58,747 bases of DNA from a virus (lineage: Duplodnaviria; Caudoviricetes). The translations under genes were made by a program, and so were the position numbers. Within the stretch, counting starts at the first letter, position 1; each line of letters starts with the position of its first letter. Location of the stretch: positions 1-58,747 of IMG/VR virus record IMGVR_UViG_3300048839_000819, one strand, 5' to 3'. The notes under the pieces were generated by a model. It was given only the letters and a program-made list of their open reading frames with translations. It did not search any database and had not been told where the DNA came from. Positions 5,472-52,602 of this stretch are shown here, piece by piece.

Positions 5472-6368
5472 ATGCCATTTGTTAAATACCAACATATTGA
5501 GCGTTTTGGTACTGAAGAAGTTGAAGGTATCGAAGTTGGGGAATGTTATGTTTTCCCTAAAATAGACGGAACTTGTAGCGTTTTATTCTATGAAGATGGT
5601 AGGATACATGCTGGAAGCAGAAACAGGGAATTGTCTAGTGAAAGTGATAATGCAGGCTTTTACAAAGCCTTGTCCGATGATGATAGAATTTTAGAGTTTT
5701 ATGACGTTCATAAAGATCTTATTCTATATGGTGAATTTCTTGTTCCACACAGCTTGAAGACATACAAAGACGCTGCATGGAGAAAATTCTATGTTTTTGA
5801 TGTGTGCAGAATCGTCGATGACAAGCTGCACTATTTACCTTATACTGAGTATCAGCCTATATTGGAGGAATTTAGTATTGATTATATTCCACCACTTAGG
5901 ATTATTAACAATCCAGACTACGACAAGCTGGTATCTTTGTTAGATCAAAACACCTTCCTCATCAAAGATGGAGAAGGTGCTGGTGAAGGGATTGTTATTA
6001 AGCGGTATGACTTTGTCAATAAATATGGACGGACCACTTGGGCAAAGATTGTAACCTCAGAGTTTAAAGAGAAACATGCTAAGGTCATGGGTGCGTCAAG
6101 ACAAGAGGGTAAGGACTTGGTGGAAGAGAAGATTTGTGAAAAATTTGTAACCCAGGCTATGGTTGACAAAGTTCATGCTAATATTGTTAATGAAAAGGGA
6201 TGGTCCAGCAAGGACATACCTAGACTTTTGGACACTGTGTTTCATGATTTGATTAAAGAAGAATCCTGGAACTTCTTGAAGGAGTTCAAATTTCCAAGTG
6301 TCAACTATAGGACACTGAGATCCTTTTGTTATTCAAAAGTTAAAACGTTGAAACAAGAATTGTTTTAG
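5472..6368 (+). CDS. RNA ligase (Rnl2-like nucleotidyltransferase)
   Basis: Motif I KIDG, GSRN, LYGE, FYVFD, motif IV GEGIVIK, motif V AKIV. Confidence 0.85.
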   Translation: MPFVKYQHIERFGTEEVEGIEVGECYVFPKIDGTCSVLFYEDGRIHAGSRNRELSSESDNAGFYKALSDDDRILEFYDVHKDLILYGEFLVPHSLKTYKDAAWRKFYVFDVCRIVDDKLHYLPYTEYQPILEEFSIDYIPPLRIINNPDYDKLVSLLDQNTFLIKDGEGAGEGIVIKRYDFVNKYGRTTWAKIVTSEFKEKHAKVMGASRQEGKDLVEEKICEKFVTQAMVDKVHANIVNEKGWSSKDIPRLLDTVFHDLIKEESWNFLKEFKFPSVNYRTLRSFCYSKVKTLKQELF

Positions 6369-8261: not shown

Positions 8262-8861
8262 ATGAATTTCAAATTAACTGACAAAGAATATACAGATTTT
8301 TTCTATGAGGCACTTGAATCAGTGACTAAATTTCACTTCGCCTTTGATCTGGCCATCGGCCAGGATATAGGCTTTGAGCTATATTGTTTGCGGTCTTCAT
8401 TGATTAATGAAGAGAAGGCAGAGTTTGATGCTGCTATGTCTAAAGGATCAAAGATAGACATACTGGATGCTTTGTGTGATCTATTGTATGTTCTTGATGG
8501 CGCTTTTGTCAGTAGCAAAGCCAGTAAATATTCGCCTTATATACTAAAGTGGAAAGGTTATTTTGAAGAGCATGGCAGCAAAGATTGTGTCTTTTCTCTA
8601 CAGGATAATTTATGCTCATTCTTGGATGAGCTATTAACCCCAGAAAAATCCTTTGATCTTTTTGAGAGTCTATGCACTTGTTATTCTATCATCATGAATA
8701 CAGCAACAAGGTTTGAGCTTCCAATGGTAGAAGGTTTTAGGCTTGTACATCAAAATAATATGTCAAAATTAGGGGAAGACGGAAAACCAGTAAGAAACGA
8801 TTACGGAAAGATCATCAAGCCATCAGGCTATAAGCCTGTAGACTTGAGTGTTTTGTTCTAA
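8262..8861 (+). CDS. MazG-like / PRA-PH family NTP pyrophosphohydrolase
   Basis: LINEEKAE...DALCDLLYV...VHQNNMSK...GKIIKP. Confidence 0.85.
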   Translation: MNFKLTDKEYTDFFYEALESVTKFHFAFDLAIGQDIGFELYCLRSSLINEEKAEFDAAMSKGSKIDILDALCDLLYVLDGAFVSSKASKYSPYILKWKGYFEEHGSKDCVFSLQDNLCSFLDELLTPEKSFDLFESLCTCYSIIMNTATRFELPMVEGFRLVHQNNMSKLGEDGKPVRNDYGKIIKPSGYKPVDLSVLF

Positions 8862-8878
8862 GAAGAAAGGATTAAACA

Positions 8879-9202
8879 ATGCATACACAAGATATTGAAT
8901 CGTTTTTGATAAAGGATGGATGGGAGTATATCGAAGATCCATTTGAAAAGGAATCTAAACCCTATTACAAATTCTTTGATACCCCAACAAAATGTAAGCA
9001 CAACCATGACAAGCCTGGAGTTAAGATTTGTATTAAGTTATGTGGAAATATATATCAAATGCACCTAGGAGGACAGCTTCAAGACGGTACTTGGATAAAG
9101 CTGTTTCACTGGGTAATACCATTAAATCTTGAAGAGGGTTTGCAACTAATTCCAAGGCTGCTTGCAACGTGGGAGTTTGTTGCAAATTATAAGGAGAGTT
9201 AG
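8879..9202 (+). CDS. hypothetical protein
   Basis: RBS AAGGA. Confidence 0.65.
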   Translation: MHTQDIESFLIKDGWEYIEDPFEKESKPYYKFFDTPTKCKHNHDKPGVKICIKLCGNIYQMHLGGQLQDGTWIKLFHWVIPLNLEEGLQLIPRLLATWEFVANYKES

Positions 9203-9204
9203 AC

Positions 9205-9375
9205 ATGCCAGATATTAGTATGTGCAGGAATAAAGAGTGTCCTCTTAGAAGTAAGTGCTACAGATTTTTAGCTACGCCGTCTTTTTGGCAAGCATACATT
9301 GATGCAAAACCAATCACCAAGGAGGATGGTACTGTGGTGTGTGAGCATTTCTACAAAGCTGATATTAGTAAGTAA
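9205..9375 (+). CDS. 56-aa Cys-rich phage protein (not in ORF track)
   Basis: RBS AAGGAG; MPDISMCRNKECPLRSKCYRF...CEHF. Confidence 0.7.
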   Translation: MPDISMCRNKECPLRSKCYRFLATPSFWQAYIDAKPITKEDGTVVCEHFYKADISK

Positions 9376-9387
9376 AGGATTTGCATA

Positions 9388-9981
9388 ATGAAAGAAGAAA
9401 AGAAAATATTTTATGACACCGCTGAAGCAGCACAGTATAAAGAAATCACCCTAAAAGGGTGGTGGTCAGGATCAAGTACCTACCACAAAAAATCTGTGTT
9501 CTGGGGAGAAGATGAGCATATGGCGCGATGGGATGGGTGCACCCATCTCAAGTGTGCGTGCGGTAAAGAACATTCCAAACATTACACTTGCTGTGATGAT
9601 TGTCGAAAGGTGCATACAAGAGAAAGATATGAAAAACTTCAATTAGTTGAGTGGGATGGTGTAACACCAATAACCACGTTCGACGACGATAAATATTTTT
9701 TCAGTGAGGATGATTTACTTGATTACATTTACAACGAAAATGTAGATCAAGAGGATCTTATGCTGGTTTTGTGCAAACCAAATTATGCTGAAAATCTAGA
9801 AATAGATAGATGGGAAGATGATCTTCCAGAAGATTCTGAGGGACCAGATTGGTTGATTGAGGCTATTGATGCCTTTAATAAAGCAATCAAAGATAAGGGG
9901 CCTTTGTCTTGGGGAGCAAGTAATAAGCGGATAAACTATAAGCTGCCTGATAATTTTAAATATGAGGATGAAGAAGGATAA
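9388..9981 (+). CDS. conserved hypothetical phage protein with zinc-binding motif
   Basis: EHMARWDGCTHLKCACG...CDDC. Confidence 0.75.
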   Translation: MKEEKKIFYDTAEAAQYKEITLKGWWSGSSTYHKKSVFWGEDEHMARWDGCTHLKCACGKEHSKHYTCCDDCRKVHTRERYEKLQLVEWDGVTPITTFDDDKYFFSEDDLLDYIYNENVDQEDLMLVLCKPNYAENLEIDRWEDDLPEDSEGPDWLIEAIDAFNKAIKDKGPLSWGASNKRINYKLPDNFKYEDEEG

Positions 9982-10007
9982 TTAATAAAAGTTTGGGAAA
10001 TTTGAAA

Positions 10008-10094
10008 GGCTCAGTGTCGGAATTAGCTTACGAGAGAGATTTAAAATCTCTTGCCCTTAAACAGGGCGTGTGGGTGCAAGTCCCACCTGAGCCA
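10008..10094 (+). tRNA. trnL: tRNA-Leu (anticodon UAA), CCA not encoded
   Basis: Acceptor stem ggctcag/ctgagcc + discriminator A; anticodon arm agaga-tttaaaa-tctct; long variable arm; T arm gtggg-tgcaagt-cccac. Confidence 0.9.
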
Positions 10095-10116
10095 TTATTT
10101 TAGAAAGGTTTTAAAA

Positions 10117-10670
10117 ATGATTTCTACAAAAGGAAACACTCGTCAGCAGTATTTTTTCACTGCTGACGAGCACTGAATTATGGGCATTCAGGGATCATCG
10201 AGTACTGTAATCGTCCATTCTCCTCTATAGAGGAAATGGACGAGGAAATAATTAGACGACACAATGAGGTTGTTACTTACAGAGACACCGTTGTTCATGT
10301 TGGAGATTTTACACTAAAGAAGAGTAAAAGAACAGCCGGGGATTATGTTAAAAGATTATGTGGAAATCATATATTCCTAAAAGGATCTCATGACTACTGG
10401 TTGGGTAAAAACCACCCTTTACAGATTTGGGAAAAACAAATAGGAGATGTTTATATTGTAGCGTGCCACTATGCGATGCGTACATGGGCAAGATCACATT
10501 ACAATTCATGGCAACTTTTTGGACATTCACATGGAAAATTACGCCCAATTGGAAAATCTTGGGATATTGGAGTTGACAACAACAACTTCTATCCAGTATG
10601 CTTTGATGAGCTTGTGGAAATAATGGAAACTAGGGAAGATAATTTTAATCTGGTCAAGAAGGGATACTAA
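10117..10670 (+). pseudogene. calcineurin-like metallophosphoesterase with frame break after DEH (5 extra nt, 10174-10178)
   Basis: YFFTADEH-TGA in the start frame; YGHSGII..NRPF..VGDF..GSHD..CHYA..FGHSH..DIGVD in another frame. Confidence 0.75.
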
Positions 10671-10671
10671 A

Positions 10672-11136
10672 ATGCAATTTTACATCATTCACCCAGATCC
10701 AGAAACGTCTGCTAGAAATCTCCCAGATTATGCTTTAAAGCGAGTCAACATCCGAGAGGGTTATCAAATACTGTCGGACATAGGCCATATTCTTGGTATA
10801 CACTGGGAAGGGCAAAACAAGCTCTATTCTGCAAGTCATGCCTTGACTAGGCATTTTTGCAGTGATCCTAACATTCTCAAGGAGTTTTTACGTAATTACA
10901 CTCAATGTTGTATGGAGTATGAAAGAAGATACAAAAAAAGTCATAAGTACATTGACTTATTTTATAGCAACTACGATTATATTTTGACCTTGCCAAGATT
11001 ATGTTATAAGTCCAAATACGAAAGCACTTTGAAATATTTGCTAGAAGAAAAAACCAGTAAACTGAGTGAAGTAGATAAATTAACACTAAATAAATTTCTG
11101 GAAGTAAAAAATGATACTGCTAAGACAAAGTCATGA
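10672..11136 (+). CDS. pyrimidine-dimer DNA glycosylase / endonuclease V-like protein
   Basis: MQFY...DPETSARNLPD...KRVNIREGYQIL...H pattern of the DenV-like family. Confidence 0.6.
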   Translation: MQFYIIHPDPETSARNLPDYALKRVNIREGYQILSDIGHILGIHWEGQNKLYSASHALTRHFCSDPNILKEFLRNYTQCCMEYERRYKKSHKYIDLFYSNYDYILTLPRLCYKSKYESTLKYLLEEKTSKLSEVDKLTLNKFLEVKNDTAKTKS

Positions 11137-11782
11137 AATTCTGGACATCACAAACGAGCCTACAAGGCTCATTGAGAGAGCAGCTAGAACATGTTATAAA
11201 AGTGAGCATCTCATATGCGAAGGATCAGATTTAGATTTAATAAAGAAATTAATTAAAAGAGGCCATGAGGCAATGCTTGAATTTGCCAACATGACCGTTG
11301 AATTTGTTACAGACAGGGCCATATCGAATGAGCTCACCAGACACAGAATTTGCTCGTTTGCCCAAAGCAGTACTCGCTATATAAAGTACTCGGACCATGT
11401 GCCTTTCATAATTCCAGAGGAATATGAGGCTATATTGGCAGGCATTTATGGTCCTTTTGATGAGTTTTTTTACCAGAAATTTGATTATCTATCCTCAGAT
11501 GAACATCTATATTTATGGAATTATAAACAACTTGAAGACATTTACACATCTGCTCTGAAAATGGGTTATTCAGCCCAACGGGCTAGAGATGCCTTACCTT
11601 TGAGTACGGCCACCACTTTGGTTGCCTCTGCCAACTTTAGAGAATGGAGACACATTTTTAAATTAAGATGTAGTAAAAAAGCCCATCCAAGAATGAGGGC
11701 TTTGATGATTCCTTTGGTCAAGGAATGTCAGGAAAAAATTCCTTTGATTTTTGACGACATTAAGGTAGACTGTACAACATGA
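11111..11782 (+). CDS. thyX: FAD-dependent thymidylate synthase
   Basis: RHRICSFAQSSTRY signature; IERAARTCYKS; GHEAMLE; NFREWRHIFKLRC...AHPRMR. Confidence 0.95.
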   Translation: MILLRQSHEILDITNEPTRLIERAARTCYKSEHLICEGSDLDLIKKLIKRGHEAMLEFANMTVEFVTDRAISNELTRHRICSFAQSSTRYIKYSDHVPFIIPEEYEAILAGIYGPFDEFFYQKFDYLSSDEHLYLWNYKQLEDIYTSALKMGYSAQRARDALPLSTATTLVASANFREWRHIFKLRCSKKAHPRMRALMIPLVKECQEKIPLIFDDIKVDCTT

Positions 11783-11946
11783 GTGAAAAATGCACAGAAT
11801 GTGGACTAAAAAAGCCTGACCATCGTTGCACAAAGTGCAGAGCATGGTACTGCAAAAGCTGTTGTGTTGGTCTTTCTGGCATTTGCATTTGCGCTCCAAG
11901 CACTATAGTTTCTTTGAGTGAGTACAGAAAAACCAGAAAAAAGTAA
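11779..11946 (+). CDS. 55-aa zinc-finger protein (not in ORF track)
   Basis: ATGA overlap with thyX; MSEKCTECG...RCTKCRAWYCKSCC...CIC. Confidence 0.65.
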   Translation: MSEKCTECGLKKPDHRCTKCRAWYCKSCCVGLSGICICAPSTIVSLSEYRKTRKK

Positions 11947-11956
11947 AGAGGTTGAA

Positions 11957-12616
11957 ATGGAAGAACGGGATATCCCAAAATTTGAGGATTTAAAAGACAG
12001 ACAAAATTTTATTTTTAGTGATAAAAAACCTTTTAAGGAGTCTTCAGAGAATACCACCTTAAAAGGTATGTCAGAAAAAGAGGCTGAGACCATTTTAGAG
12101 AGTTTTAGGGGGGACTATGATGATCCCCCCTGTCAGAGCCCTAGTATAAAAGACAAAAGTAACAAAGAGAAAACTAACAAGATGGTTAAAGAAGCCGTAT
12201 CAAGAGGTTTGAATTCACTTTTAACTGTTTTGGATGCAGATGGTGCCAGTAAAACAGTTGGTGATAGTACAATATCCAAGGAAAAGCTGTGCGGCCAAGA
12301 ATACATTGGAACTCTCAAGGTAGAGCCTAAAGAGAGCTTCCCTGGAGGAGCCACCAGAAGCGATTCTAGGGGCAAAGGCAGGTTTGACCTCATACCCTAT
12401 GGGCCTCTCAAAAGATTGGCTCTACGGTATGAATATGGGGCTGTACAGCACGGTGACAATAACTGGAGGAAGGGTCAGCCCAAATCACGCATATTTGCTG
12501 CTATGATCAGACATGCGTACCAGTGGCTTGCTGGGTATAGGGATGAAGACCATTTAGCCGCTGTTGCTTGGAATGTTTTTGCTTTGATGTATTTTGAGGA
12601 AAAAGATAATGATTGA
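11957..12616 (+). CDS. dATP/dGTP diphosphohydrolase-domain protein (DUF5664-like) with N-terminal extension
   Basis: GATRSDSRGKGRFDLIP...YGAVQHGDNNWRKG...RH...EDHLAAVAWN; start moved to ATG 11957 (RBS GAGG). Confidence 0.85.
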   Translation: MEERDIPKFEDLKDRQNFIFSDKKPFKESSENTTLKGMSEKEAETILESFRGDYDDPPCQSPSIKDKSNKEKTNKMVKEAVSRGLNSLLTVLDADGASKTVGDSTISKEKLCGQEYIGTLKVEPKESFPGGATRSDSRGKGRFDLIPYGPLKRLALRYEYGAVQHGDNNWRKGQPKSRIFAAMIRHAYQWLAGYRDEDHLAAVAWNVFALMYFEEKDND

Positions 12617-13004
12617 TCATATTGGACCAAGTAGAATACCTTTCACAGAACAATTAACCTCAGATGATGTTAAGCTTGTTCCTTTAGAATTAAGAGAAAC
12701 AACCATAGATGGTGGTGTACAAACTGCTGTATCTGCAATGCCTACGGCATTACCTACTATGGCTTTAGATTTGATTTCTAAAGTTATGGCCGAAGGCATG
12801 GAAAAATACCCCAGACATGAGGATGGAACTTTAAACTGGTACAAAATTTCCAGCATGTCAAACTTTGACCACTCTATCTCACACTTTTTTAATTTTATAA
12901 CTAAAATAAATAATCCTGGAATAGAAATAAATGAGCTCGAAGAGCTCAGTCATTTTGTGGCTAGAGCCTTAATGGGTCTAGAGCAATATTTGAGGGGAAA
13001 ATAA
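12609..13004 (+). CDS. second DUF5664-like protein
   Basis: GGVQT...VMAEGMEKY...NWYKI...DHSISH...LSHFVARALM. Confidence 0.7.
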   Translation: MIDHIGPSRIPFTEQLTSDDVKLVPLELRETTIDGGVQTAVSAMPTALPTMALDLISKVMAEGMEKYPRHEDGTLNWYKISSMSNFDHSISHFFNFITKINNPGIEINELEELSHFVARALMGLEQYLRGK

Positions 13005-13276
13005 TGAATGATTTACAAGAAGAACACGAAGATAGTTTTATTTCATACACTCTACACATTAATGGTGTAGATATTCCTTTAACCAAAGATAAGTTAGAAA
13101 ATTTATATAAAGAATTAAAAAATATATTTGAAAAAGATACTATTTATTATCCAATTACATCACCATATTATCCTGTAACACCTGTACCATATCTAGATCC
13201 AACCTATATTAGTGATCCGGTCCCGCAGGGACCAATTATCACCTGTCAAAATAATGACTCCCCACCTTCTTCTTAG
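13004..13276 (+). CDS. hypothetical protein with Pro/Tyr-rich tail
   Basis: TAATG overlap. Confidence 0.65.
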   Translation: MNDLQEEHEDSFISYTLHINGVDIPLTKDKLENLYKELKNIFEKDTIYYPITSPYYPVTPVPYLDPTYISDPVPQGPIITCQNNDSPPSS

Positions 13277-13287
13277 AAAGAGTTTTT

Positions 13288-13839
13288 ATGAGAGATTTAT
13301 GTTTCCTTGATATGGATGGTGTGCTAGTCAATTTCATTGACGCTGCACACAAATTACACAATCAAAGAACATTACTCCCTGATTGGCCATATGAAAAGGG
13401 AGAAAAGAGCTTTGATGTAACCGAACGACTGGGCATATCTGTCTCTGACTTCTTTGCCCCTATGGGATTTTCCTTTTGGAAAAATCTCGAATGGTTTGAT
13501 TTTGGAGACTCCCCCCTCTTTAATGGCAAGCTTCTTCTTGAATCTTGTGAATCTTTGTATGGTGTTGAGAACATTTGCATCTTGACATCACCATGCTTAA
13601 CCCCTGGTTGTGTTGAGGGCAAACGTGCTTGGATAGACAAGCATATGCCCAAATACAAAAAGCAGGTTTTGTTTGGATCAGCCAAACATTACTGCGCTCA
13701 TAAAAACGCTATACTATATGATGACAAAGAATCTAATGTAAGTAAATTCAAGGGGTGGGGCGGTAAGGCATCGTTGATGCCTAGGCCCTGGAATAGTAAT
13801 TTCAAAGTGTGGGATGAAAAACTATGCCCGACAAAATAA
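13288..13839 (+). CDS. 5'(3')-deoxyribonucleotidase (HAD superfamily)
   Basis: FLDMDGVLVNF, ILTSP, GKRAWI, LYDD. Confidence 0.88.
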   Translation: MRDLCFLDMDGVLVNFIDAAHKLHNQRTLLPDWPYEKGEKSFDVTERLGISVSDFFAPMGFSFWKNLEWFDFGDSPLFNGKLLLESCESLYGVENICILTSPCLTPGCVEGKRAWIDKHMPKYKKQVLFGSAKHYCAHKNAILYDDKESNVSKFKGWGGKASLMPRPWNSNFKVWDEKLCPTK

Positions 13840-47740: not shown

Positions 47741-47779
47741 AAAAAGTAAGAAAGGGGTGGGACTTTCCCACCCCTTTCT
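47741..47779 (-). terminator. intrinsic terminator after the capsid gene
   Basis: 14-bp stem agaaaggggtggga/tcccacccctttct followed by a T tract on the minus strand. Confidence 0.85.
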
Positions 47780-47785
47780 ATTTGG

Positions 47786-49980
47786 TTAGGCACCAAGGTT
47801 GGTGATTTTACCATAAGTGAACATACGACTGTTCAAGACCTTAAAGCCAGCAGCACTCATGAAACCCTTCTGGCTGAACAAGTCAGAAGTCGTCACTGTA
47901 GGCGAGGTGAACAGAGGCATATACGGAGCATAGGCAAACGCAGCATGCAAGAAATCCTTGCCGCGATAACCCATGATGTATCGGTTAGTGCCAGATACGC
48001 TGGACCCACCAATAGTGCGATCCTGAAGCAGAGGATCTTGGATCACAGTACGACCACCAATATCGCCAATGACCATAGGTCCAAGAGGCAGATCAGTAGT
48101 CTTTGCCTTAAAGGTAGGCAACTGCTTAATAACACGAGCCACGTTATTACCGCAGATGATCCAACTACCCTGTGCTCTCAAGGTAGCCGCGAAGATGTTG
48201 TTTGAGCCTTCCTCAAACCTATCAAGAATTTCCTGTTTCTTGAACACCCATTCCTGACCACTACCAACGGAAGCATTCCATGCGGTAATGGCGGTTGCAG
48301 GAGTGTACGAAGTACCTTCCCAAGACCCGCCATGAGACGCGATGTCAATCTGGTTGATGCCGAAGTGATCAATTGTAAACTGACTAGCTGTTACTTGTAG
48401 ACCTATTAAAAGCACGATCACTAAAATGCAATTAATTAATTTTTTAATAGGCGGGTAAGTCATCTCTGCTTACCTCCAAACATTTCTGCTTGGTTCAGAC
48501 TATATCTTAACCCTGAATTTTCCAGGGTTGCCGCCGTAGCCTCTAAGATTACTCTTAAAGACGTAGTCGTTGAACTAGTATTGAACAAAGTATCCTCAGC
48601 CATTGCTGTTTCAACCATATTGTTCATTTTATTTTTCATATCAATCTTTCAATACTAGCTGCTGATTGTCCCGAAGGAGGTTCCAGCAATTAAGCGGCTT
48701 TCGCGATGCCGATATTACTATCGACGCGAGGCCCACATTTAACCTCGCCACCCAGATACTTCACCAATTCGCTCTCCAGGTCCATACCATGAGCCTTGGA
48801 AAGGTCAATGGCAGCACCAATTGACCAGCTTGCAGCCAGAGGGAAATCAATGGCTGTAACAGGCGATTGTGTCAAAGACACGCTTGCCTTGGGTACACCA
48901 CTCTGATCGTTGTAAGCATCAATGGGCTTATCATACTGATAGCGATAATTCACTGCAACACCAGAACTGTCAGTGGTAGTTGCAAGCGTGAAAGAAATCG
49001 CACCAGTGGTGTAATCCACAGTACCAGTACCACCGTCACCAGTTATAACAGTGGCTGTATCAGCGTCAGTACCAAGAACAGTACCGTCAGCAGCCTCAAG
49101 CACAACAGTACCAGAGGTAATGCCGGGCTTATAGGTGCAGGTGTGGGTAATGGTTTGACCAATGGACTTGGAAGACGAAGAGGCAATAGCCTCACCAATA
49201 ACACCAGAGTAAGCATACGTCTGACCAGCAAGGGTACGATTTGTACCAGTAGTAGACGACAGCATGGTGTCACCAGCGGTGACTGCACCCTTGGTATTAT
49301 CGTACTTCACATCCAGATAGAACACAGAACCAGTCCTTCGGTCCAAACTTTGAATAAGAGCAACCTCATTCAGCACTAATGCACAAAAGTCCCTATTTTT
49401 CAAAAGGGGGTGGATCATATCATCCTCACAATGGAGGTTCGGCGCTTTTGAGATATTATTGGTAGCAAAATCCTCAATCTCTGATCTCTGAACTTTCTCT
49501 TTTACATAACTACTTGCATTCAAAGAGCTTAGCTGCTGATTAGCATATTCTTCTTTCGAAGAACTTAGCGTTCCAGAAAGTAATTGTCTTTCATATTTAA
49601 TTGTTCTGTTGGTTTTTGACATTACTTTTTTCAATTCACCGAATTTTTCAAAATAGATTACTCTATTAAGCCGCCATTTGATCTAACGGAAGCAGTGCTG
49701 CGATAATCGGAAGCTGCACACCCAGGAAAGAAATATTGTCTTCCGTGGTGCTCTCAAACAGACGCCCAAGCGCCTTCGGCGCTACACCGGTTTGCATAAG
49801 GGCATTATCAAGACACTGTGCTGTCGCACGAGCTTCATGAATACCAAGCTCACGGCCTTGAGTCTTCTTGAGGTAATCATTTACAGGATTCAACCAAGAA
49901 CCCCAACGTTTTACAACGTTATTCTGTTCGGCGATGATCTCCTTACGGCGACCTTCTACCATCTTTTTCATATCAATCAT
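47786..49980 (-). CDS. gp23: major capsid protein (T4 gp23-like), spliced: join(49686..49980, 48742..49381, 47786..48383), 510 aa
   Basis: Spliced junctions give LLPSLVLNEVALIQ and LGGEVQFTIDH, aligning to gp23 IPNLIAFDICGVQ and LSTEILAEINR-type motifs; AFAYAPYMPL C-terminal motif. Confidence 0.9.
48384..48741 (-). mobile_element. group I self-splicing intron (358 nt), no intact homing endonuclease
   Basis: P AATTGCTGGAA, Q AATCAGCAG, R GTTCAACGACTA, S AAGATATAGTC; P1 GCGAGGU/GCCUCGC with U-G at the 5' splice site; P3, P7, P8, P9 stems; terminal G. Confidence 0.92.
49382..49685 (-). mobile_element. group I self-splicing intron (304 nt), no homing endonuclease
   Basis: Q AATCAGCAG, R GTTCAGAGATCA, S ATGATATGATC (P7 GAUCA/UGAUC), P3 TTCGGTG/CGCCGAA; P1 CCGU/GCGG; P10 AAUG/CAUU; terminal G. 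Confidence 0.88.
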
Positions 49981-50103: not shown

Positions 50104-52602
50104 TTATCTACTCAGATGTTTTGTGATCTCTTTGTTGATTATAAGAGACTCCTCATCAGAAGTAGATTCAATCAATAATTCATCATAACTCGGTTTCATC
50201 AAAAGGTCAAGCATAAATTTATGACTATTTCCCTCCAGAATACAATCAATATCATCTTTTGTCTTTGCTTTCTTAGCAAGTTCACAAATAGACTCAGAAA
50301 GAGTTATACCCATGAAGGACGATTTGATGTCCAAGTAATTCTTTAAACTTTCTTCTCTAACCAATTTCTCTACAGACTTTTTAGTAGTCTCTATAATCTT
50401 GGTGGCTTTTGTTTTCAACTTTTTAAGCTTAGTTTCATACAGACTGGTGGTCTCAGTAAGTTTAGCGTTCAATTCACGAATTACTGAATTTCTGGAAAGA
50501 ATCGTCTTGTTCTGAGATTCGTTTGTTTTTGTAGTACTGTCAATCCTCTCATTGAGCTGATTGATAGTAGTTTGCATCTCATTGATCATTTCAGACAGTA
50601 CAGAAATTTCATCACTCTTAATAGCTTCATCTGCCCGTTGGGCATACGTAAGCTTTGAGACATCAAGGGATTCTTTCTTTTGCTTTTTGACTTCTTCAGC
50701 TGATGTGCCAGCTTCCATACTCTTTTGCACAGCTATAGCGTCATCTTTATTATTTGTTTTATATGTTGCTGTTTCATCCTTTACACCATCAATATAAACA
50801 TCTACAACAAACTCACCGGTGTCTTTATTTTTATGAATTTTAGTTTTTTTACCACTAGAGGCTTTACCTTCAGAGAGATCATCCTTATCCTTCTTACTGG
50901 TCTCTTCGAGACCACTGGCAAGCCTTTCGAAATAATCTAAGAGACCATAGTATGACTCTTTGATGACTCCCTTGATTTTAGGAGCTACAGCTTTTTGTAC
51001 TTTTGACTCACCAATGACGGACATGTACTCTTTTTGACAGGAGCAAGAAGAGAAGCTTTCACCACAACTAGGACATGCCTCCATGAGGCACCCCAGAGTG
51101 TGGAGATTACCTTCTTTCATTTCCACCTTACATCCAATACAAGTTACATTTGGCTTGACAACCATCTGTCTCTCATATATCTTGTCCTTGATTTTTACGT
51201 ATTTGGATTCTTTATTGTATCCTGATTTAATAGGCTTTTTCTTCTTAGACTCTTTCTTTTCCTCATCCTCTTCAACATCCTCAAGAGTTTCTAGGTCTTG
51301 AATTTCTTCAGACTTTTCATTGAAGTCCTTCTCTTCCTCTATCTCTTCTTCCATTTCTACTGGAACTTCACCTTGTGAAACATCAGTAACTACTGGTATG
51401 CTACTCGTAGTTGTAGTTGTAAGCCTGATGACAGGTGAAACGGCATCAGATTTAAAAATCTCAATAGTATCAGATGTGCTGTTAGTACTATATTGAGTAT
51501 CAGGAAGAATCTGAGCCATTTGCTCATTTTCTTTCAGAGCCTTCAAAAGAGAATCACCAGAAAGGCCCTCTTTCAAAGTAATTTCAAATTCTTTATCAAA
51601 GGATTCATCCAATGATTTAACTGTGTATGTTTTTGATTCTGTTTTCATAGAAACTTCTCCATCAACTTCAACGTCAGGAATGTAGTCTTTCAACTCCCAC
51701 ATACTGTCCATAGCATCAGGAATGGAGCCAGAACCAGAGGTAAGCATGGCATGCACAGTTTCCATACGATATGGGGATTTAATGGTTGCTGACCAATTAT
51801 CTTTGTCAATATCTATCTGAAGGCCCTTGAACTTTTGACCATCAAGAAAATCTATGACACTAGGGTCAGAAGCCTCCAGCGTATATGAATTAATACGATC
51901 TTCATTTATTTTAGGCCTCTTTACAGATTCAAGCAAAACCTTTGCTTCATCTGATTTTAATACAGCAAGAATAGACTCAGCAAGCTCTTTGCTTATCTTT
52001 CTTGCGTCATCTTCTGTGGTGCATCCATCAGAGATGGCCTCTACAACATTTCTTTCCAACTTTGTGGGAATAGAACCAAAGGTAGAGGGATCGGCTGTAA
52101 AGTCTGTGGTAATGTATTTGTACTTATCAGGAACGACTCTATCGTAAGTAGCTGACCCTTCTGTAATTGTCTCTACATCACCAGAAGCTCTTGTACTTAC
52201 ACCAACCATACAATTAGCCTCAATGAGAGTGTGAATAAGTCTACCATGAGGTGTATCAAGTACCTCAATCTCCTGAAAGACCTTCTCAACAACCTTACCG
52301 TCTTCCTCAACAGCTTCAAAGAATGTATCTGTGATGATATGACTTGTTTGCATCAAGTCAGACTTCACCCCTTCGGGGTGCTCACCATGACCATACAAGT
52401 TTCTATTTTTATGCTTTGCTTTTATTTCAGGATCATCCATTACCTTTTCAAACACAGCACGCTCATAGATGCGTCCGTTTGCGTTTAGCTCATCTACATT
52501 GCAAATAGGCCAAACGCCTCTAAACAGGACACCCTTGGGTAATTTTGACCTATCTGATTCTGTAATCTTACAGTTTACCAAAAGTGTTTCATTTAAAATC
52601 AT
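50104..52602 (-). CDS. gp21: prohead protease (gp21-like) fused to a zinc finger and a scaffold-like coiled coil
   Basis: NANGRIYE, GHGEHP, LDTPHG, GVSTRASG, DFTADPS; long acidic/coiled-coil C-terminus. Confidence 0.88.
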   Translation of the reverse strand: MILNETLLVNCKITESDRSKLPKGVLFRGVWPICNVDELNANGRIYERAVFEKVMDDPEIKAKHKNRNLYGHGEHPEGVKSDLMQTSHIITDTFFEAVEEDGKVVEKVFQEIEVLDTPHGRLIHTLIEANCMVGVSTRASGDVETITEGSATYDRVVPDKYKYITTDFTADPSTFGSIPTKLERNVVEAISDGCTTEDDARKISKELAESILAVLKSDEAKVLLESVKRPKINEDRINSYTLEASDPSVIDFLDGQKFKGLQIDIDKDNWSATIKSPYRMETVHAMLTSGSGSIPDAMDSMWELKDYIPDVEVDGEVSMKTESKTYTVKSLDESFDKEFEITLKEGLSGDSLLKALKENEQMAQILPDTQYSTNSTSDTIEIFKSDAVSPVIRLTTTTTSSIPVVTDVSQGEVPVEMEEEIEEEKDFNEKSEEIQDLETLEDVEEDEEKKESKKKKPIKSGYNKESKYVKIKDKIYERQMVVKPNVTCIGCKVEMKEGNLHTLGCLMEACPSCGESFSSCSCQKEYMSVIGESKVQKAVAPKIKGVIKESYYGLLDYFERLASGLEETSKKDKDDLSEGKASSGKKTKIHKNKDTGEFVVDVYIDGVKDETATYKTNNKDDAIAVQKSMEAGTSAEEVKKQKKESLDVSKLTYAQRADEAIKSDEISVLSEMINEMQTTINQLNERIDSTTKTNESQNKTILSRNSVIRELNAKLTETTSLYETKLKKLKTKATKIIETTKKSVEKLVREESLKNYLDIKSSFMGITLSESICELAKKAKTKDDIDCILEGNSHKFMLDLLMKPSYDELLIESTSDEESLIINKEITKHLSR

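Follow-up and report, generated by a model that had tools for sequence, protein, structure and literature searches.

We analysed a stretch of 58,747 nt, the metagenomic virus record IMGVR_UViG_3300048839_000819 of IMG/VR (hereafter the window), a contig that is rated 27% complete and leaves about 73% of the genome outside. The minus strand from 49980 to 47786 very probably holds a late, single-copy capsid gene of the T4-Gp23 family, belonging to an uncultivated myovirus and interrupted by two group I introns that are deletion derivatives of site-specific mobile introns. Sequence comparison established the anatomy of these introns, their predicted joints, their homology to endonuclease-bearing introns, the conservation of their fold and the existence of an intron-less allele. 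We infer that they are selfish passengers and have reached the stage of the homing cycle at which such introns decay. An earlier sequence-only reading of the window had already proposed two group I introns in the major capsid gene, and this was borne out by matches of the Rfam group I intron model RF00028 at both gaps and of the capsid family PF07068 on exons 2 and 3. Overall that reading was right on what the elements are, but its account of why they are present turned out to be wrong or unsupported.

The capsid gene was found as three open reading frames (ORFs) that lie head to tail on the minus strand, at 49980..49666, 49634..48690 and 48463..47786. PF07068 (Gp23 major capsid protein, cut-off 24.4 bits) matched the second piece over profile positions 20-179 with 40.9 bits and the third over positions 202-347 with 54.8 bits. 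Exon 1 gave no family match in the profile search, and it aligns with the N terminus of uninterrupted homologues. The predicted exon 1 (49686..49980, 295 nt) starts with the ATG at 49980, with AGGAG read from the sequence 7 nt 5' of it, and ends in a U that would pair with the guide sequence of the first intron. Exon 2 (48742..49381, 640 nt) and exon 3 (47786..48383, 598 nt including the stop at 47786-47788) follow on the same strand. The joined exons amount to 1533 nt and encode 510 amino acids with a single terminal stop, in agreement with the in-frame product that had been predicted earlier.

Both strands of the window were searched with RF00028 (gathering score 50 bits), and the matches in the two gaps were the only group I matches. 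The joints were determined with a script that took all in-frame pairs of an exon-final T and an intron-final G around the gaps and rated each resulting peptide by its score against three homologues whose genes are uninterrupted. Ranked first were 49685-49382 for intron 1 (304 nt, score 178 as compared to 166 for the runner-up) and 48741-48384 for intron 2 (358 nt, score 154 as compared to 138). These are the joints given by the sequence-only reading, and they also agree with the tiling of homologues. In this alignment (A1) the three pieces of the window tile uninterrupted homologues (L001, L002, L008 and others) with one residue missing per joint, and the missing residues are the split codons, Ser at joint 1 and Val at joint 2. 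The ends of the Rfam matches were tried as joints as well and were rejected: 49391 as the end of intron 1 would insert three residues that are absent from all homologues, and 48476 as the end of intron 2 meets a stop within five codons.

No other evidence supports the predicted joints as strongly as the alignment to L021, an 11-kb metagenome contig with an uninterrupted capsid gene of 511 amino acids, which is the closest relative found. The sequence-only reading had proposed a search for such intron-less alleles. With blastn, L021 aligned to the window in three blocks, with breaks at 49688|49372 and 48741|48383. L021 and the spliced gene of the window share 83% amino acid and 74% nucleotide identity, and the higher identity at the protein level speaks for purifying selection on the exons. 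Removal of the introns restores a frame that is colinear with the intron-less alleles L021, L001, L002 and L008.

Intron 2 (48384..48741, terminal G at 48384) was matched by RF00028 at 48751..48476 with 73.1 bits (E 1.1e-16, model positions 1-253), above the gathering score, and extends 92 nt past the match with P9.1 and P9.2. Its predicted P1 (48726..48748) pairs exon bases GCGAGGU (48748-48742) with GCCUCGC (48732-48726) and has U.G at the 5' splice site. The predicted P10 consists of 5 bp between UAAAU (48741-48737) and GUUUA (48380-48376, positions +4 to +8 of exon 3). P1 and the terminal G are thus as first described, but P10 is limited to these 5 bp and does not take in the whole of UCAGUUUA. 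The core from P3 to P9 (48476..48698) includes P4, P5, P7.1 and P8, with P3 at 48698-48694 / 48534-48530, P6 at 48659-48650 / 48583-48574, P7 at 48568-48564 / 48502-48498 and one hairpin, P7.1 (48561-48540), between P7 and P3'. It is followed by the peripheral hairpins P9.1 (48474-48454) and P9.2 (48452-48401) and a tail that ends in the terminal G. The minimum free energy (MFE) fold contains P1-P6, P7.1, P8, P9, P9.1 and P9.2, and none of 100 shuffled sequences folded as well (z = -6.03).

Intron 1 (49382..49685, terminal G at 49382) was matched at 49695..49391 with 41.8 bits (E 2.7e-7 for the whole window). A search with group I models, named earlier as a check, therefore placed intron 2 above the gathering score and intron 1 below it. 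The internal guide sequence (IGS) GCGG, the P10 pairing AAUG/CAUU and the terminal G that had been described for intron 1 are all in the sequence. The predicted P1 (49671..49689) is formed by CCGUUA (49689-49684) and UGGCGG (49676-49671) with U.G at the splice site, and P10 by 4 bp between AAUG (49678-49675) and CAUU (49381-49378). The GCGG guide that pairs with CCGU recurs in L035, L036 and L038, relatives with an intron at the same site. The core from P3 to P9 lies at 49391..49643, with P3 at 49643-49637 / 49445-49438, P4 at 49578-49573 / 49539-49534, P7 at 49486-49482 / 49417-49413, a single hairpin, P7.1 (49481-49450), between P7 and P3', and also P5, P6, P8 and P9. The MFE fold also shows an extra hairpin between P3 and P4 (49577..49628).

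Subgroup IA introns are defined by one or more extra hairpins (P7.1/P7.2) between P7 and P3'. By this definition both window introns appear to have a subgroup-IA-like layout, with one such hairpin each. In both introns the frame of the preceding exon meets a stop ahead of the catalytic core: at 49666..49668, 6 codons into intron 1, and at 48690..48692, 17 codons into intron 2 at the junction of P3 and P4.

The proposed course of splicing is that the capsid pre-mRNA folds and that the last 4-7 bases of the exon are bound by the guide sequence, so that a U.G pair falls on the splice site. Free guanosine would then attack the 5' splice site, P10 would align the next exon, the terminal G would be exchanged and the exons ligated, and two such events would give the 1533-nt frame. 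Ribosomes that enter an unspliced intron would stop after 6 or 17 codons, before they reach the core.

Conservation of the fold was analysed with RNAalifold on the relatives of each intron. For the 3' halves of seven introns of the intron 2 family (sites 2 and 2b, see below), 44 pairs were predicted, 30 of them with compensatory changes, and 99.3% of the cells were paired. A blind run on these halves recovered P7, P7.1, P8, P9, P9.1 and P9.2, none of 500 shuffles reached the observed values, and slid controls gave 2-8 pairs. In the 5' halves of this family P1, P2, P4 and P5 were supported, with compensatory changes in 9 of 27 pairs. In L027 and L030 a synonymous C-to-U change in the exon goes along with G to A in the guide within P1, and their P10, read by eye, is UGAAUUU/AAAUUCA. 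In the intron 1 family (six sequences, sites 1 and 1b) 20 of 32 predicted pairs were compensatory, including a C-G to U-A switch in P7 of the window intron; 96.2% of the cells were paired, no shuffle out of 500 reached the score and slid controls gave 2-7 pairs. Taken from the alignments, this supports the maintenance of the core helices P3-P9 by compensatory change in both introns.

Among metagenome sequences, 29 loci were found by means of the capsid alignment. Some of these are duplicates, as L028 matches L029, L037 matches L040, and L010 and L025 are one contig. At least one intron was present in 13 of the 29, the covered part of another 13 had none, and three were uninformative. At least five insertion sites were distinguished in this capsid family. 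Site 1 is the split Ser codon after ...AALLP (...AALLP|S|LxLNE...), with introns of 304 nt in the window, 1009 nt in L036, 1345 nt in L038 and about 337 nt in L035. Site 1b, ten codons upstream of it, is used in L033, L037 and L040 and at the cut 5' end of L030. Site 2, just after ...YLGGEV, holds 358 nt in the window, 1156 nt in L026, 1138 nt in L027 and 1151 nt in L030, and is also occupied in L032. Site 2b lies 14 codons upstream of site 2 (L028/L029, L032), and site 3 is near the C terminus (L010/L025, 296 nt). RF00028 at E <= 0.01 matched 9 of 18 loci, two of them above gathering. The same-site homologues of intron 1 in L035 and L036 reached 58.4 and 49.7 bits, and L010, with 69.6 bits, was the only match in a separate scan of seven loci.

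Three of the relatives showed irregular arrangements. In L032 (525-2066) two introns lie 43 nt apart in the related capsid gene: the first, at site 2b (525-838), is ORF-less and scored 59.3 bits with RF00028; after a mini-exon of 14 codons, the second, at site 2, carries a TnsA-like ORF of 342 amino acids, and the 3' tails of the two introns are near-identical. In the ORF-less site 1 intron of L035 (1360-1730) an A replaces the splice-site U of all other copies (…CUUCCGA|CAUU…). A dead copy, an error of sequencing or a shift of the splice site could account for this, and the joint is ambiguous. In L023 (3678-3688) the capsid match shifts frame with overlapping coordinates and no intervening sequence; the cause is a frameshift or faulty assembly and not an intron.

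All long introns of the relatives (1.0-1.35 kb) contain a same-strand ORF of 297-421 amino acids, and these ORFs are related across all sites, in some cases weakly. PF08722, the N-terminal domain of TnsA-like endonucleases, was detected in four of seven intron ORFs scanned (L026, L027 and L032 at site 2, L028 at site 2b) with E-values from 4e-16 to 2e-13, and one of these ORFs also has NUMOD3. An NCBIfam search gave only sub-threshold TnsA-like matches. A PDB sequence search with the L027 endonuclease gave nothing meaningful (best E 0.59), and no solved-structure relative of these endonucleases was found by sequence. At site 2 the ORF lies in the P6 loop and extends through P6', P7, P7.1, P3' and P8, and at site 1 (L036, L038) it lies in the hairpin between P3 and P4, the place of the extra hairpin in the MFE fold of intron 1.

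The window introns align over their full length with the longer introns of relatives, except for the ORF body. Neither contains an intact homing-endonuclease ORF, and both contain remnants of one. In intron 1 an open frame of 84 codons (49383..49634, minus strand) overlaps the ribozyme core and resembles residues 247-280 of the 297-residue ORF of L036 (47% identity, E 2e-4 with BLASTP), as the tail of an endonuclease ORF would. As an alternative N terminus of the capsid protein this frame was rejected: no Shine-Dalgarno-like sequence precedes it and it is explained as an ORF remnant. Intron 2 has an ORF of 59 codons in the P6 loop (48460..48639, minus strand), which resembles residues 271-319 of the 323-residue ORF of L026 (50% identity, E 2e-10 with BLASTP). 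It retains the start-codon region of the endonuclease ORF and has the form of an in-frame deletion remnant with the first codons and the last ~50. Full-length alignment to ORF-bearing introns, together with the retained ORF tails, suggests that the window introns are endonuclease-deleted derivatives of mobile introns. Each would descend from a mobile intron that homed into one conserved site of the capsid gene, and what survives in the window would be the tail of the ORF, doubling as ribozyme core, plus the first codons in intron 2. The sequence-only reading had called both introns ORF-less, which is correct in that no intact gene is left but overlooks the remnants. The contrast it drew with classical introns that bear endonucleases or their remnants was not upheld, as the window introns show that same remnant pattern.

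A capsid tree was made from the 15 complete genes, with partial genes left out. On this tree the intron labels require five changes, as compared to a minimum of four, and do no better than shuffled labels. The scattered distribution bears on the suggestion, made in the sequence-only reading, that the introns have been domesticated and gate late expression, with splicing timing or throttling capsid output, for example via the level of guanosine triphosphate (GTP) or by coupling to translation. It is in line with this suggestion that the late gene in question is the most heavily expressed one and that the early exon-frame stops in both are compatible with coupling of translation and splicing. 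To judge by its title, work by Sandegren and Sjoberg in 2007 (cited in PMC8541194) reportedly found that splicing of T4 introns in vivo depends on translation and growth state, and we counted this in favour of domestication. However, the nearest relative, at 83% amino acid identity, has neither intron, the intron states are scattered like shuffled labels, and the same introns elsewhere carry endonuclease genes at the same sites. The window copies hold decayed remnants of such genes. All these features are typical of selfish elements, and we consider a regulatory role very unlikely.

The window shares the exon bases that flank intron 1 with L036 and L038, although the capsid proteins are only about 50% identical, and the intron-less L021 has synonymous differences at these positions. 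Co-conversion during homing or the pairing need of the guide and P10 would explain the identical flanks, and either suffices. Co-conversion would be expected of introns that are still mobile with the help, in trans, of a free-standing endonuclease whose gene lies in another part of the genome. A review describes such collaborative homing in phages, between ORF-less introns and free-standing endonucleases (PMC3984707). The sequence-only reading had pointed to a free-standing HNH protein. However, the window had no match to PF01844, PF13392, PF14279, PF02945 or PF01541 (HNH, HNH_3, HNH_5, endonuclease VII and GIY-YIG), and no homing endonuclease was found in Pfam scans of 20 ORFs between 57 and 14680. 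The share of the genome outside the window, about 73%, leaves room for help in trans. In relatives the cognate endonucleases lie within the introns and not in free-standing genes, and against the window they match only the intron 2 remnant (residues 270-303 of the L027 endonuclease, at 48526-48627) or nothing at all (the L036 ORF). The pairing need accounts for the identical flanks equally well. Mobility in trans was judged unlikely.

The decay of once-mobile introns fits the ordinary life cycle of a homing intron, which invades, loses its endonuclease and then persists while it still splices well enough. This cycle is suggested by the combination of the intron anatomy, an intron-less near relative, a scattered distribution, endonuclease-bearing homologues and decayed remnants.

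Several observations weigh against this interpretation. Splicing and its efficiency are deduced from the sequence. Intron 1 stays below the gathering score of RF00028 (41.8 as compared to 50 bits), its MFE is unremarkable (z = -0.34, with 39 of 100 shuffles folding as well), and it lacks a second hairpin between P7.1 and P3' that is kept in L035, L036 and L038. Together the low score, the unremarkable energy and the lost hairpin suggest that intron 1 could splice poorly or need a helper. RF00028 at E <= 0.01 found nothing in L026, L033 and L040, despite their interrupted genes. The pair counts refer to structures that RNAalifold predicted on the same small alignments (6-7 related sequences), which inflates the agreement. 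The protein similarity of the remnants may merely follow conservation of the core at the RNA level, and the part of the genome beyond the 27% may hold another intact capsid gene or a trans-acting endonuclease.

The weak features of intron 1, and the origin of the record as an incomplete metagenome assembly, could also mean that the gene itself is decaying: one or both introns would no longer splice and the capsid protein would come from another copy, or the phage would be defective or the sequence mis-assembled. We regard this as very unlikely. All three exons are open and colinear with homologues, and against L021 identity is higher for the protein than for the DNA. Neither intron has lost P1, P10, its terminal G or the core helices, compensatory changes are present, among others in P7 of intron 1, and the gene sits in the conserved order of protease and capsid. 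Additionally, the same intron sites recur in independent contigs from other samples, which mis-assembly would not give.

The P9.2-plus-tail module of the intron 2 family was found in 21 IMG/VR contigs (L042-L062), whose elements share J8/7, P9, P9.1, P9.2 and the tail with intron 2 of the window. A different capsid family, phrog_1357, was present in pieces in 15 of the 21 records. The downstream frames that abut the module belonged to phrog_1357 in six of ten cases, to a terminase in one and to a sigma-factor-like protein in one, and two were unmatched. With tblastn, phrog_1357 exons flanked the module in 15 or 16 loci, some of them with at least four interruptions (e.g. L044). Other hosts of the module were a Gp23-type capsid gene (one), a terminase gene (one) and sigma-factor-like genes (three). 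RF00028 was run on 19 of the module loci and reached the gathering score in L049 only; at E <= 1 on nine loci it gave weak matches in L058 only. The failure of the Rfam model on most of these loci means that their group I label relies on the shared 3' module and the abutting exons. PF08722 gave no match in any of the 21 module records, controls included, and with the intron ORFs as tblastn queries only L049 was matched. L049 (860-2804) contains a Gp23-type capsid gene with two RF00028 introns of 64.3 and 54.4 bits, both above gathering. Its exon 1 is 76% identical to that of L028, and one of its introns occupies a further site near residue 381 (L028 numbering).

Based on these occurrences we tentatively entertain, as an unlikely possibility, an intron lineage with a TnsA-like PD-(D/E)xK and NUMOD3 endonuclease that is specialised on phage capsid genes and serves competition between co-infecting phages, with the ORF-less copies as 'immunity alleles'. 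It is hinted at by the at least five sites in one capsid family with about half of the relatives occupied, by the two introns 43 nt apart in L032, and by the P9.2-plus-tail module next to phrog_1357 exons, with most of these elements unseen by Rfam. If true, copies with the endonuclease would attack rivals that lack introns by cutting their capsid gene, and ORF-less copies would persist since their target sites are broken up.

Directly upstream of the capsid gene lies a gene for a prohead protease (50104..52602, minus strand, 832 amino acids; PF03420, phrog_207) that is fused to a long scaffold-like region. In this protein an N-terminal prohead serine protease is followed by a long, acidic, coiled-coil-like part with Cys pairs, and protease fusions of a similar kind in relatives have 621-993 amino acids. 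The order of protease and capsid genes is conserved in L001, L002, L008 and L010. A terminator-like hairpin (47749..47779, minus strand, 14 pairs and a T run) is located just past the capsid stop, and a tail sheath gene further downstream. The protease and scaffold fusion upstream and the tail sheath downstream indicate a late structural module of a myovirus. The G+C content is 48% for the capsid exons, 35-39% for the introns and 37% for the whole window.

Megablast of the capsid region gave no match among 50,697 phage records, a tblastn search of these records with exon 2 gave none either, and a first IMG/VR scan with exon 3 as query found no relative. Exon 3 was less than 60% identical to all 43 phage records that it matched, the best being Maribacter phages at about 31%. 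The T-even frame of reference of the sequence-only reading was therefore abandoned: with no megablast match and a best capsid identity of about 31%, no close relation to T4-type genomes was seen, and on its sequence the window phage is not T-even. Most of the neighbouring genes had no PHROG match.

Elsewhere in the window, a cluster of genes for the nucleotide pool occupies 8262-13839 on the plus strand. It comprises a MazG-like PRA-PH protein (8262-8861), ThyX (11111-11782), two adjacent proteins with PF18909, the N-terminal domain of dATP/dGTP diphosphohydrolase (11918-12616 and 12594-13004), and a 5'-deoxynucleotidase (13288-13839), all on the plus strand, and could hint at a modified DNA base. 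An RNA ligase is encoded at 5472-6368, and the single tRNA gene is a tRNA-Leu with anticodon TAA (10008-10094, plus strand).

Gene callers report a capsid gene of this kind as three fragments, and split capsid markers distort the classification, completeness estimates and capsid phylogenies of uncultivated phages. The case points to frequent colonisation of capsid genes by introns in such phages. The intron-less L021, the window with its ORF-less introns and the endonuclease-bearing L026, L027, L030, L036 and L038 form a natural series that suits experiments on homing, endonuclease loss and interference between phages.

The T4 introns in td, nrdB and nrdD belong to subgroup IA2. Like them, the introns described here have the extra hairpin between P7 and P3', an ORF for an endonuclease looped out from a peripheral helix (in relatives), an early in-frame stop within the intron and a sporadic distribution among relatives. 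In contrast, the host gene is a late structural gene and not one of nucleotide metabolism, neither window intron has an intact endonuclease, and the endonuclease of the relatives is of the TnsA-like PD-(D/E)xK type instead of GIY-YIG or HNH. When the window introns were compared to the phage collection with blastn, only core stretches of 28-59 nt matched, in unrelated phage introns. Foley et al. in 2000 (cited in PMC8541194) reportedly described, to go by the title, phages of Streptococcus thermophilus in which the lysin-gene intron occurs as deletion derivatives. That phage intron, likewise of group I, would exist in forms with the internal ORF and in forms that have lost it by deletion, and it belongs to another intron family and another host gene.

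Introns in capsid genes and essential phage genes with several introns are already published. The mycobacteriophage LittleE has an intron in its major capsid gene that was judged most likely group I and was demonstrated to be spliced during late expression by reverse transcription PCR and N-terminal sequencing (PMC3706429), and the same paper cites a capsid intron in the lactococcal phage Tuc2009. The window resembles LittleE in the position of the introns inside the major capsid gene and in the availability of an intron-less relative. However, LittleE is a siphovirus with a high-GC bacterial host, and its single intron carries an endonuclease gene in antisense orientation (PMC3706429), whereas the window has two introns, neither with an intact ORF, in a Gp23-type capsid gene, and splicing is predicted. 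The Lactobacillus phage JCL1032 has group I introns in two late genes (cited in PMC6669764). In Faustovirus E12 the major capsid gene likewise contains multiple group I introns, five in number, two of which have a homing endonuclease; this virus differs as an amoebal giant virus with a double-jelly-roll capsid, 13 exons, mixed intron types and GIY-YIG endonucleases (PMC6247863). Homing endonucleases that target conserved codons are reviewed together with collaborative homing (PMC3984707), and interference of an intron endonuclease with a co-infecting phage is reported for PhiPA3 (PMC11620839). In the literature covered, which did not extend to most subscription journals and supplements, neither a phage capsid gene with two group I introns nor an intron endonuclease of the TnsA-like type was found to be described.

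The jumbo 'Jug' gut phages (360-402 kb) have on average 18.5 group I introns per genome. Their terL, nrdD and DNA polymerase genes are split in two or three by short ORF-less introns, of the 76 introns predicted, 37 were confirmed as spliced by metatranscriptome reads, and the associated nucleases include endonucleases of the PD-(D/E)xK type (PMC12880540). The split genes named in the available text do not include a capsid gene, which the intron tables of that report may list (PMC12880540). As in the Jug phages, an essential gene of the window phage is split by short group I introns with no intact ORF, and this adds to recent evidence that essential and highly expressed phage genes, not only those of nucleotide metabolism, are common homes of group I introns.

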